From assembly GCA_043801155.1 (NCBI GenBank), contig JAZDMI010000011.1, forward strand, positions 27,439-91,438: 64,000 nucleotides of DNA. The letters run 5' to 3'. The notes under the pieces are model-generated. The model was given only the letters and a program-made list of their open reading frames with translations, ran no database searches and was not told the DNA's origin. This stretch comes from Candidatus Gottesmanbacteria bacterium (GTDB lineage: Bacteria > Patescibacteriota > Microgenomatia > JAMCYU01). Numbering within the stretch: position 1 is the stretch's first letter; every line of letters starts with the position of its first letter. The position numbers and the translations under genes were made by a program. Below are positions 37,980 through 38,758 of the stretch, in pieces.

Positions 37980-38758
37980 TTTCAGCTGTTATTTTAACTA
38001 AAAACGAAGAAAAAAATATTAAAGACTGTTTAGAAGCAGTTAAATGGTGCGAGGAAATTGTTATTATTGATGATTATTCAGAGGATCAAACGGTGTCAAC
38101 ATGTGAAATGTCAAATGTTAAATGTCAAATTTTCCAGCGACATTTAGATAAGGATTTTGCTGCGCAAAGAAATTATGGATTAGAAAAGGCTAGGGGACCT
38201 GCCCGCCATGCTTCGCAAGGCGATGCGGGCGGGGAGTGGGTATTATTTTTAGATGCCGATGAAAGGGTAACAGAAGATCTAAAAGAAGAAATTCTTCACT
38301 TCGTTCAGAATGATAAATATAATGGTTTCTATTTAAAAAGAAAAGACTTTCTTTTTGGTAAAAGACTTAATCATGGAGAATCGGGGAATATAAAGTTATT
38401 AAGACTGGCAAAAAAAGATTCAGGAATATGGGGTCGCTCTGTTCATGAGACTTGGCAAATAAAAGGATTAATAGGGGAGTTAACCAATCCCCTATTACAT
38501 TATCCTCATCAGAAAATAAGTGAATTTTTACATGATATTAATATCTATACTGATATCAATGCCCAAGTTTTTTATCAACAAGAAATCAAAGTTAGATTTT
38601 GGCAGATTTTTATATATCCTTTTGGGAAGTTTATTAAAAACTATTTTTTTAAATTGGGGATTCTCGATAAGACACCTGGTTTTATTCACGCAGTCATGAT
38701 GAGTTTCCATTCTTTTTTGACCAGAGCAAAACTCTGGGTATTATGGCATTCTTCATAA
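37976..38758 (+). CDS. Family-2 glycosyltransferase carrying an in-frame GC-rich insert
   Basis: ISAVILTKNEEKNI...IIDDYSED...FLDADE. Confidence 0.75.
   Translation: MISAVILTKNEEKNIKDCLEAVKWCEEIVIIDDYSEDQTVSTCEMSNVKCQIFQRHLDKDFAAQRNYGLEKARGPARHASQGDAGGEWVLFLDADERVTEDLKEEILHFVQNDKYNGFYLKRKDFLFGKRLNHGESGNIKLLRLAKKDSGIWGRSVHETWQIKGLIGELTNPLLHYPHQKISEFLHDINIYTDINAQVFYQQEIKVRFWQIFIYPFGKFIKNYFFKLGILDKTPGFIHAVMMSFHSFLTRAKLWVLWHSS

Follow-up and report, generated by a model that had tools for sequence, protein, structure and literature searches.

A GC-rich hairpin insert in a Candidatus Gottesmanbacteria glycosyltransferase gene belongs to a large, apparently undescribed family of hairpin repeats in uncultivated ultra-small (CPR) bacteria

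The stretch of DNA analyzed here (the window, 64 kb) contains an intact gene for a family-2 glycosyltransferase (GT2), whose product matches a Candidatus Gottesmanbacteria MAG protein at NCBI with 100% identity. This gene carries a short GC-rich element, copy A, and a related element, copy B, lies in a gatD gene further downstream. The features are as follows.

37976..38758, + strand: family-2 glycosyltransferase (PF00535/PF10111), intact ORF of 260 aa, host of copy A
38198..38233, + strand: copy A, 36-nt element CCTGCCCGCCATGCTTCGCAAGGCGATGCGGGCGGG, in frame within the GT2 gene, encoding PARHASQGDAGG
38198-38201: unpaired 5′ tail CCTG of copy A (predicted fold)
38202-38207 with 38228-38233: basal stem of copy A, CCCGCC with GGCGGG (predicted fold)
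38210-38211 with 38225-38226: middle stem of copy A, GC with GC (predicted fold)
38213-38216 with 38220-38223: apical stem of copy A, TCGC with GCGA (predicted fold)
38217-38219: loop of copy A, AAG (predicted fold)
50530..51828: ORF of 432 aa upstream of gatD, putative murT (position and synteny)
51840..52652, + strand: gatD, CobQ-type glutamine amidotransferase of the MurT/GatD lipid II amidation pair (PF07685), 270 aa, host of copy B
52403..52441, + strand: copy B, 39-nt element CCTGCCCGCCAGCCTTAATGGCAGGCAAGTGCAGGCGGG, within GatD, in the Glu codon of the GNNG-E-DGTEG motif

Copy A has a GC content of 75% over its 36 nt (38198-38233), against 33% for the surrounding GT2 gene. A preliminary description had given the insert as 37 nt; that string, cctgcccgccatgcttcgcaaggcgatgcgggcgggg, is present at 38198-38234, but the insert itself ends one nucleotide earlier. 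The encoded peptide occupies residues 75-86 of the protein and sits, as had been proposed, in the loop between GLEKARG and EWVLFLDAD, with the DAD motif following immediately. In the AlphaFold model of the GT2 (mean pLDDT 89.8) this region is a loop of pLDDT below 50 running from helix 61-71 to strand 88-93. The element lengthens this loop, which precedes the catalytic DAD strand, by 12 residues. Minimum-energy folding with either RNA or DNA parameters returned the arms that had been suggested by inspection, CCCGCC/GGCGGG on the outside and TCGC/GCGA on the inside.

Copy B is inserted between the second and third base of the Glu codon, and the motif now reads D-LPASLNGRQVQAG. Its termini are the same as those of copy A (CCTGCCCGCCA...TGC(A/G)GGCGGG), its interior is diverged, and it folds weakly, with a z-score of only -0.9. 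The 13-mer GACCTGCCCGCCA, already noted as common to both genes, occurs exactly twice in the window (38196 and 52401), the second occurrence opening the in-frame gatD insert. The GT2 gene reads it in codon phase 2 and gatD in phase 1, and the likeness therefore resides in the DNA. We take the upstream ORF as a candidate murT from its position and synteny; MurT domains were found in the gene upstream of gatD on related contigs.

A covariance model of the family, run without filters over the whole window, scored copy A at 53.9 bits (E 2e-13) and copy B at 20.9 bits (E 7e-4) and identified these two as the only members in the 64 kb. GC islands of at least 70% (30-nt windows) number only 16 in the same sequence. 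Two intergenic sites at 44737 and 46846 had also been put forward as copies, and these did not hold up: neither is among the covariance-model matches even at E up to 10. The hairpins at 44705-44775 and 46825-46885 do fold, but they are matched neither by the family model nor by Rfam and are regarded as unrelated. The preliminary description is thus confirmed in part, for the GT2 and gatD sites but not for the other two of the four sites it named.

Metagenome, genome and viral contigs were scanned with the pattern CCTGCCCGCMA-N12-30-TGCRGGCGGG, which matched 5 viral and at least 120 metagenome stretches and yielded at least 141 distinct copies. The further copies that had been predicted therefore exist in number, in other genes and other genomes. 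Among the matches listed, copies measure 36-42 nt, 77 of them having a length of exactly 36 nt, and the commonest variant turns up unchanged in 18 different contexts; copies are mostly near-identical to one another. The 36-mer of copy A recurs without change in five other contigs (L137, L147, L152, L176 and L195), with different flanks. The termini are set by the search pattern itself, so the conserved ends and CCTG tail are partly ascertainment, and diverged copies found by the model vary at their termini.

The copies lie in unrelated housekeeping genes and also between genes. Hosts include ribosomal protein S1, class I and class II aminoacyl-tRNA synthetases, NrdD, trigger factor, GAPDH, DnaK, ClpB, an IscS-like aminotransferase, an NAD-dependent sugar dehydratase/epimerase, a methyltransferase and a second GT2, and the peptides expected from translated copies include PARNATHSVAGG, PARNASHSDAGG and that of copy A. 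Host GC content ranges from 29% to about 60%. Spread across phyla is not established: a host of 59% GC, considered in this connection, is Ca. Uhrbacteria, a CPR lineage, and a TonB-like host (L132), identified by reading the sequence by eye, hints at hosts outside CPR. Spans of 10 kb on some other contigs carry 2-4 copies. Individual copies stand alone or abut directly, and tandem head-to-tail and nested copies occur; with no spacers between them and with their scatter in genes, a CRISPR repeat, which would form a regularly spaced array with unique spacers, was rejected.

The gatD loci found by a GatD profile search of genome contigs all lacked the insert and were cyanobacterial in about half of the cases, and these contigs were reused as a negative control. 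About 425 kb of random CPR DNA among them held 3 copies, and the family model had 0 matches in loci of other phyla totaling about 0.98 Mb, for the most part cyanobacterial. No match to the element was found by blastn in INPHARED phages, PLSDB plasmids or E. coli genomes, and Rfam, at gathering and at permissive thresholds, returned no family (the best score, 13.6 bits for abiF, fell short of the threshold of 37). Searches of the literature by peptide, nucleotide string and topic found no description of the hairpin family. Based on these results, the GC-rich insert belongs to a large, apparently undescribed hairpin-repeat family of uncultivated ultra-small (CPR) bacteria.

One DNA fold is common to all subfamilies (z-scores -2.5 to -4.0). 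It comprises a fixed unpaired 5′ CCTG tail, a basal stem CCCGC/GCGGG, a middle stem TGC/GCA, and a variable apical stem, both sides of which change together, closed by a 3-nt loop. Pair 16-26 is UA in 15 copies, AU in 12, GC in 3 and GU in 2, with a covariation score of 0.125 compared with 0.067 in shuffles, a value reached in 0 of 500 shuffles. An alternative register (1-6/31-36 plus 8-14/23-29) was rejected in favor of the CCTG-tail register because it shows no covariation. A diverged copy (L178:5451) suggests a third pairing, CCTGC with GCAGG, which is thermodynamically poor.

We considered whether the segment might be an ordinary, vertically inherited variable loop of the protein, its GC content and palindromy being a by-product of Pro, Ala, Gly and Arg content. 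A similar peptide is indeed found at the same place in several GT2 and many GatD orthologs. The segment is absent from 112 of 120 GT2 homologs, the closest included, as expected of the lineage-specific insertion first proposed; that proposal has to be qualified, since distant GT2 orthologs carry the element at the same codon. The proteins concerned are only 53-55% identical, and their inserts match the window copy at 33 of 36 nt, synonymous sites included, whereas the flanking codons vary freely; the shared peptide is therefore not ancestral. Conservation of synonymous sites within the insert and not beside it speaks against the inherited loop, as do the difference in frame between the two window genes over the shared DNA, the recurrence of one and the same 36-mer on both strands, between genes as well as within unrelated ones, and the GCC, CCC, GGC and GCG codons of copy A, which are foreign to a gene of 33% GC. 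Together with a filled/empty polymorphism among alleles 94% identical (below), this makes an inherited loop extremely improbable.

GatD gives a similar picture at copy B's exact nucleotide position, where 31 of 120 homologs have an insert and 89 are without the segment. The reading is GE|D or GK|D in empty alleles and GD.. or GN... in filled ones. Alleles 91.5% identical in DNA differ by the presence or absence of the insert, and the GatD copies decay, with drifting interiors, internal deletions and remnants such as LPA-QTG or QAG. Co-transfer of a larger gene fragment as the source of same-site recurrence was rejected because the flanking codons differ freely.

The reading frame was analyzed for the 101 copies in AT-rich contexts among the matches listed, 52 within long ORFs and 49 elsewhere. 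Length is divisible by three in all 52 of the former compared with 26 of the latter, and variants of 37 and 40 nt are found only outside ORFs. The intragenic copies seen are those that add whole codons without a stop, and 38 of the 52 are read in the frame PAR..AGG. With a mean hydropathy of -0.5 to -1.1, this frame is more hydrophilic than the three other open ones, which give +0.9 to +1.1, or -0.1 in the Cys-encoding frame. The element is found in the DNA in either orientation. Within genes, 42 copies have the orientation of the gene and 10 the opposite one, against 11 and 12 between co-directional genes (both among the matches listed). We infer that the in-frame pattern reflects selection after insertion and not a frame-aware mechanism, and the frame statistics suggest that the inserted codons are translated as a surface loop tolerated by the protein. 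An untranslated insert, bypassed by the ribosome in the manner of T4 gene 60 or the yeast mitochondrial 'byp' elements, or removed from the mRNA, could be imagined from the position of the insert after a Gly codon and from the resemblance of a GC-rich hairpin in an AT-rich gene to byp elements. A skipped element would be free in length and frame, yet every intragenic copy counted is a multiple of three without a stop, the hydrophilic frame is strongly preferred, and variants that are not multiples of three exist but are excluded from ORFs; there is hardly any likelihood left for a bypassed or excised insert.

Evidence of insertion also comes from Ca. Uhrbacteria IleRS alleles, at least 94% identical, that differ by exactly 12 aa (36 nt). 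At the DNA level, GTCGAG|36 nt|GCGAAA in the filled allele corresponds to GTCGAGGCGAAA in the empty one, and neither a duplication nor a scar is seen. Across copies, neither target-site duplication (k = 2-6) nor extension of the inverted repeats into the flanks rises above chance. No clear target motif emerged; the sole signal is that about 58% of copies have an A at -1.

We also weighed a host-beneficial DNA or RNA signal, such as a site bound by a nucleoid or topology protein, an element for mRNA processing or stability, or a translational pause site, kept near-identical through its function and spread by recombination rather than selfishly. Functional constraint could account for the extreme conservation across hosts of very different base composition; the stem covaries, the same nucleotide position is reused in the GT2 and GatD of distant lineages, and E. 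coli REPs have such secondary roles (PMC3733652). However, close alleles without the element exist, the GatD copies decay, and the flanks of same-site copies were not co-transferred. The scattered positions in unrelated proteins and the lack of intergenic orientation bias also mean that there is no consistent placement with respect to gene features. We consider a host signal unlikely, and copy A, together with copy B, is read instead as a member of a widespread, mostly 36-nt, non-autonomous family of mobile DNA hairpins, with a probability of about 0.8.

As a mobile hairpin, the element would be selfish and without host function, and would be moved in trans by an enzyme that recognizes the folded single strand. 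Tentatively, and at well under even odds, the best-fitting known mechanism may be that of a REP/RAYT-like or IS200/IS605-like 'peel and paste' HUH tyrosine transposase, because this is a seamless mechanism that uses an unpaired tag beside a hairpin. In a search for the mobilizing gene, ORF clustering near copies, a weak test, gave no recurrent family other than housekeeping genes, and neither a template gene nor a reverse transcriptase. Likewise a weak test, phmmer with an IS200 TnpA query gave 0 matches in 7,665 ORFs from about 2 Mb of fragments. On a viral contig with four copies, Pfam found only a HerA-like ATPase and a Dam methylase, and no mobilizing gene. This outcome would also suit copies written from a conserved master template by a reverse transcriptase, in a retron-like process, or by gene conversion from a structured RNA gene, and the many identical copies in a few discrete 'master' subfamilies and the scarless insertion agree with such an origin. 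Against a template stand the lack of a match in Rfam, E. coli genomes, PLSDB plasmids and INPHARED phages, the absence of any candidate template gene or reverse transcriptase near the copies, and the tandem head-to-tail and nested copies, which fit a DNA element better. A template origin appears very unlikely, more so than a host signal, and we retain the mobile DNA hairpin.

Among the closest known systems, the Rickettsia palindromic elements (RPEs), to which the insert was likened at the outset, are similar in behavior: like the hairpin family, they are palindromic repeats found in frame in intact housekeeping genes and between genes, adding a peptide in tolerant loops and regarded as selfish DNA filtered by selection. 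The likeness, that of a small GC-rich palindromic repeat which enters ORFs and keeps the frame, is functional, and to this extent the initial interpretation is supported. Most RPE families are about 100-150 bp, compared with 36 nt for the hairpin element. The sequences appear unrelated and the two are set apart by host and by encoded peptides; RPEs are confined to Rickettsia, whereas the hairpin family keeps a near-identical sequence in many uncultivated lineages and in some viral contigs. The hairpin family is outside the RPE families and RPE-like in behavior only. The short RPE-4 and RPE-6, classed as CGTC-type REPs by Di Nocera et al. 2013 (PMC3733652), have a CGTC tag and a CCA tail that the hairpin element lacks (PMC3733652), and none of PARNA, SVAGG, SDAGG, LQAG or IAGR is among the REP-encoded peptides listed there for Opitutus, Rickettsia (including R. 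conorii) and Thauera (PMC3733652).

REP superfamilies carry an unpaired GTAG (GYAG, GTRG and others) or CGTC (TGTC, CCTC) at one end of the hairpin (PMC3733652). Like the present family, REPs are GC-rich imperfect hairpins, 20-40 nt long with an unpaired conserved tetranucleotide at one end, with subfamilies distinguished by complementary stem changes, with tandem or clustered copies, and with some intragenic members. The tag of the hairpin family is CCTG in all subfamilies and not GTAG or CGTC, and a 5′ flanking 'cta', which would complete CTAC, is present in only 7 of 102 copies among the matches listed. REPs are mostly extragenic, in contrast to the 52 of 101 copies inside long ORFs (AT-rich contexts, among the matches listed); their families are usually species- or genus-specific, whereas the hairpin family extends far beyond the Gottesmanbacteria genome; and a RAYT is flanked by REPs in REP systems but was not seen near hairpin copies in about 2 Mb of fragments. 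The element is a REP- and RPE-like mobile hairpin without a GTAG or CGTC tag and without target duplication, a known kind but a family undescribed in the literature searched.

IS608 and ISDra2 (IS200/IS605) insert seamlessly and in a hairpin-dependent manner, leaving a precise empty site and no target duplication, features that match the scarless filled/empty IleRS pair. They possess two distinct subterminal hairpins and a strict 4-5 nt target, whereas the present element forms a single hairpin and prefers A at -1 only weakly. The yeast mitochondrial GC clusters and 'byp' elements are also short GC-rich palindromic mobile inserts in AT-rich genomes, in places within protein-coding genes, but they belong to organelles and their sequences are unrelated; translation skips byp elements, so the frame need not be kept, while the hairpin family keeps it strictly. 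MITEs (Correia/NEMIS, RUP, Nezha) are 70-300 bp long, with terminal inverted repeats and target-site duplications. They are non-autonomous, repeated and occasionally found in genes, as here, and differ from the 36-nt element with its scarless empty site and lack of duplication.

A bolder formulation, which we hold possible but doubtful, is that the element is among the smallest known mobile DNAs (36 nt), a scarless, single-hairpin, broad-host transposon in essential genes of CPR, possibly of other uncultivated bacteria, and of their phages, with one frame shaped as a harmless Pro...Gly-Gly loop, that re-enters the same gene positions across lineages. Re-entry at the same nucleotide positions would imply target recognition by a trans-acting enzyme. 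If the reading as a mobile family is correct, selfish DNA within protein-coding genes, known mainly from Rickettsia, would extend to CPR/Patescibacteria in the form of an element three to four times shorter than RPEs and far more widely shared. Pairs of filled and empty alleles make seamless mobility testable, and gene co-occurrence offers a handle for finding the enzyme. The inserts lie in markers used for CPR phylogenomics and annotation, among them ribosomal proteins, aminoacyl-tRNA synthetases, DnaK, ClpB and GAPDH, where masking would improve alignments, and their presence or absence could mark recent descent or transfer. A naturally tolerated 12-residue loop, 'tested' at hundreds of positions, would amount to a map of permissive sites in essential proteins.

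The window is AT-rich (28–41% GC in 2-kb steps), and its GT2 protein has 100% identity to one in NCBI from a MAG of Candidatus Gottesmanbacteria, a CPR/Patescibacteria lineage. Two GC islands lie within its genes:

38198-38233: copy A, CCTGCCCGCCATGCTTCGCAAGGCGATGCGGGCGGG, in the GT2 glycosyltransferase ORF 37976..38758
52403-52441: copy B, the second GC island, in the CobQ-type GatD ORF 51840..52652

Copy A has a GC content of 75%, against 33% for the surrounding GT2 gene, and encodes PARHASQGDAGG, residues 75 to 86 of a 260-aa protein whose ORF is intact. Copy B shares with it the start GACCTGCCCGCCA and the end GGCGGGG. 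In GT2 the shared 13-mer begins at the second base of a codon and in gatD at the first, so the encoded peptides are unrelated (PAR... versus DLPA...) and it is the DNA that is alike. When a covariance model made from the family described below was run unfiltered across the full 64-kb window, it gave exactly two matches, copy A at 53.9 bits (E 2e-13) and copy B at 20.9 bits (E 7e-4). Copy A is a real finding. The preliminary description, made from the sequence alone, had also related intergenic sites at 44737 and 46846 to the element, and the unfiltered model matched neither in the whole window. A GC-rich (about 65–70%) pair of hairpins at 44705-44775 occupies the 220-nt spacer between the minus-strand ORFs 43802..44653 and 44875..45750, with a folding z-score of -2.4 on the minus strand. 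It has no match to an Rfam family, lies outside the element family, and may represent a terminator or small RNA.

Both segments are insertions. Alignment of the GT2 with its homologues showed that 112 of the 120 best, including the closest (64% identity), lack the segment and run from ...GLEKA.G directly into EWVLF.DAD. AlphaFold (mean pLDDT 89.8) models the 12 residues of copy A as a low-confidence loop between helix 61-71 and strand 88-93, which bears the DAD motif directly beyond the loop, in agreement with the placement first proposed. In GatD, homologues without the insert read GNNG-E/K-D.TEG and filled ones GNNG-D/N-[insert]-D.TEG, a change explained by 39 nt, starting with C, that separate the first two bases of a GAR/AAR codon from the third.

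The same sites are filled in other homologues. In seven of the 120 best GT2 homologues an insert occupies exactly the position of copy A, and for three of them (53–55% protein identity to the window's protein) we retrieved the insert DNA, CCTGCCCGC(A)ATGCTTCGCA(A/T)(A)GCGATGC(A)GGCGGG. These inserts are identical to copy A at 33 of 36 positions, third codon positions included, while adjacent codons differ freely; the site is filled in distant relatives by the same DNA. A second GT2 insertion hot spot, empty in the window's gene, lies at columns 78-96 of the homologue alignment A1 (~window 38105-38125), where several orthologues carry the GC-type peptides CLPARQGRKG, CLPVRRAG, SPAFRRDPAKGGG and ASCLVGRQA, which resemble further variants of such an element, or its reading in other frames.

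For GatD, 31 of 120 homologues carry the insert at the same nucleotide position. On a neighbour-joining tree no fewer than 20 gains or losses are required to explain their distribution, whereas with shuffled tip labels the mean is 27.6 and the minimum 23. Only 12 of the 31 carriers have a nearest neighbour that is also filled. Such a pattern may reflect recurrent insertion into a preferred target, recurrent insertion limited to the small number of positions that the protein tolerates, or one old insertion followed by many losses, and the tree is too weakly resolved to separate the three. The older GatD copies have drifted in their interior by synonymous changes, and some alleles are reduced to LPA-QTG or QAG remnants; judged by their sequences, these copies are clearly decaying.

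The clearest evidence for mobility is a cluster of Ca. Uhrbacteria IleRS proteins, at least 94% identical, in which two members read VRVE-PARHATQGVAGG-AKSD and three read VRVE-AKSD. At the DNA level the filled allele GTCGAG|CCTGCCCGCCATGCTACGCAAGGCGTTGCAGGCGGG|GCGAAA and the empty allele GTCGAGGCGAAA, with flanks 89% identical, are exactly 36 nt apart, the boundary being ambiguous by one G, and comparison of the two revealed neither duplication nor scar. A GatD gene pair at 91.5% DNA identity likewise differs in the presence or absence of the insert. Closely related alleles are therefore polymorphic for the element, with a seamless junction. In the filled allele of the GatD pair (L215 ~640-700, in the GatD of P0123) the insert is 57 nt long and has a second hairpin, CCCGCCAACATCTAAGAAGTTGTGGCGGG, set within the first, so one element can enter another or grow in length. 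Across the family we found no target-site duplication and no extension of the palindrome into the flanks; the sole flank signal is an A at position -1 in ~58% of copies, coding and non-coding alike. Head-to-tail copies without a spacer also occur. One intergenic array (L172:2250-2650) mixes head-to-tail 36- and 37-nt copies with GC-rich units of ~70–85 nt that start with the same CCTGCCCGCCA and end in ...CATCGGATA, and the larger repeats may be composites in which the short hairpin is a module.

A search with the terminal 8- and 9-mers located three further copies in ~425 kb of CPR genome loci. The pattern CCTGCCCGCMA-N(12-30)-TGCRGGCGGG, drawn from the termini of the first copies, then matched five loci in IMG/VR, among them a 30-kb contig with four copies, and at least 120 stretches in a metagenome collection. 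Further copies had been looked for as a check on the family, and at least 141 distinct ones, coding and elsewhere, were tabulated among the matches listed; 77 of the 141 are exactly 36 nt and the remainder mostly 39, 40 and 42 nt. Among these matches a few "master" sequences dominate: the commonest variant, CCTGCCCGCAATGCTACGCATAGCGTTGCAGGCGGG (peptide PARNATHSVAGG), is identical in 18 different contexts, ...ATGCTTCGCATAGCGATGCA... (peptide PARNASHSDAGG) occurs in 11, and the copy A variant in six, namely the window and five contigs with entirely different flanks. This is a repeated family, and its likeness lies at the DNA level.

Pfam analysis of ten host ORFs identified ribosomal protein S1, a class I and a class II aminoacyl-tRNA synthetase, NrdD, a SAM methyltransferase, trigger factor, GAPDH, an NAD-dependent sugar dehydratase/epimerase, a class V aminotransferase and another GT2; read by eye, hosts also include DnaK, AlaRS, ClpB, ribosomal proteins S9 and L7/L12, HsdM and a histidine kinase with two copies. 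The histidine-kinase ORF (L178:5088-5811, 624 aa) holds PARNASGIADAGG and a diverged PARSASPSDAGG, both in frame, with a third copy just downstream. Copies also adjoin tRNA genes (L096:3773-3860 and L063:4396-4480); in L096 a half copy, CCTGCCCGCCATCGCTGTGCT, comes after a full one and leads directly into the 3' end of a minus-strand tRNA, with a lone tRNA 3' half on the opposite side of the copies. In ~0.98 Mb of loci of other phyla, for the most part cyanobacterial, the family model had no match, and the element was unmatched in Rfam, INPHARED phages, PLSDB plasmids and E. coli genomes. One GC-rich host is a CPR bacterium (Ca. Uhrbacteria); non-CPR hosts and phages are suggested as carriers. 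The same 36-mer is present in IMG/VR contigs of 51–66% GC (L085:5130-5165, L089:5081-5116, L086 and L088), in L085 and L089 within the short spacer of two long ORFs that resemble head-morphogenesis genes by eye only, and the four-copy contig has genes for a HerA-like ATPase and a Dam methylase. The element may travel from host to host in phages.

Frame was analyzed in AT-rich contexts only (flank GC < 0.48), where spurious long ORFs are unlikely. All 52 copies inside long ORFs have a length divisible by three, as against 26 of 49 elsewhere, and the 37- and 40-nt variants are restricted to copies outside long ORFs, which bears out the early view that the element keeps the frame. The commonest variant is open in four of its six frames, and 38 of the 52 copies use the plus-strand frame PAR...AGG, the most hydrophilic (-0.5 to -1.1); two other open frames score +0.9 to +1.1 and the third, which encodes Cys, -0.1. 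Inside genes the element has the orientation of the gene in 42 cases and the opposite in 10, while between co-directional genes the counts are 11 and 12. This bias in orientation and frame thus follows from the protein's tolerance and not from the insertion mechanism or transcription. Filtering for frame and peptide acts after insertion.

With DNA parameters, all subfamilies share one fold:

lower part: unpaired 4-nt CCTG tail; basal stem CCCGC/GCGGG; 2-nt bulge
upper part: middle stem TGC/GCA; T/T mismatch; apical stem of 4-5 bp; 3-nt loop

Fold z-scores range from -2.5 to -4.0 across subfamilies, with copy B, whose interior has drifted, at only -0.9. As the search pattern fixed positions 1-11 and 27-36, only the interior was free to vary, though the termini do differ in diverged copies that the model picked up. 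Among 37 distinct 36-mers the apical pair 16-26 is UA in 15, AU in 12, GC in 3 and GU in 2, with a covariation score of 0.125 against 0.067 in shuffles, a value reached by none of 500 shuffles; a competing pairing register lacked covariation. In the 39-mers the apical stem is swapped for an unrelated 5-bp TCAGC/GCTGA with the ATA loop unchanged. The hairpin thus constrains the sequence of the element. In the diverged L178 copy, T3>A occurs together with A30>T, which hints at an alternative CCTGC/GCAGG pairing.

The element would be selfish and non-autonomous, and its inserted codons are presumably translated. REP/RAYT and IS200/IS605 are the known systems that unite a hairpin with a neighbouring unpaired tag and with insertion and excision that leave no scar. 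Because these features are combined there, we tentatively propose, at rather less than even odds, that the mobilising activity could act on the folded single strand in a similar manner. No RAYT- or IS200-like mobilising gene was found in the fragments searched.

Rickettsia RPEs, as reportedly described by Ogata and colleagues, show such in-gene behavior, and the initial reading of a repeated in-frame palindromic element, RPE-like in behavior, was essentially right. We classify the element as a REP/RPE-like intragenic palindromic element. Intragenic REPs are listed for Rickettsia conorii, Opitutus terrae and Thauera by Di Nocera et al. (PMC3733652). The behavior of RPEs and intragenic REPs matches that of the element, but it is not a member of either family: its tag is CCTG instead of GTAG or CGTC, its peptides are absent from the table of REP-encoded peptides (PMC3733652), half of its sampled copies are intragenic, and one sequence is common to many lineages, whereas RPE and REP families are specific to one species. 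A MITE is ruled out by the 36-nt length without target duplication, a CRISPR repeat by the lack of an array, and a bypass element by the strictly kept frame. A literature search of incomplete coverage, by peptide, nucleotide string and topic, returned no account of the element, which we provisionally regard as undescribed.

The window holds other repeats. The last 13 codons of ftsZ (16090..17232), at 17191-17232, reappear at the C-terminal end of a 35-aa mini-ORF (18211..18318) and, degenerate and with a stop, at 19473-19539. These two repeats (~70–110 nt) flank gene 18387..19472, and the arrangement suggests a cassette that entered at the 3' end of ftsZ and duplicated its target, or else small decoys of the C-terminal peptide of FtsZ. 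An AT-rich palindrome of 33 nt (GCACTGTAAAATTTAACGATTTTACAGTGTAAA) has two copies, 85% complementary to each other, at 45872-45904 and 46790-46822, just upstream of the minus-strand tRNA-Gly (45799-45873) and tRNA-Asp (46686-46759), and could be a shared tRNA-gene promoter or operator. An AT-only palindromic repeat with the core ATATATGATATATCAATATATCATATA occurs in both orientations at 392-457, 34863-34914 and 42286-42336, with arms up to 93% complementary.
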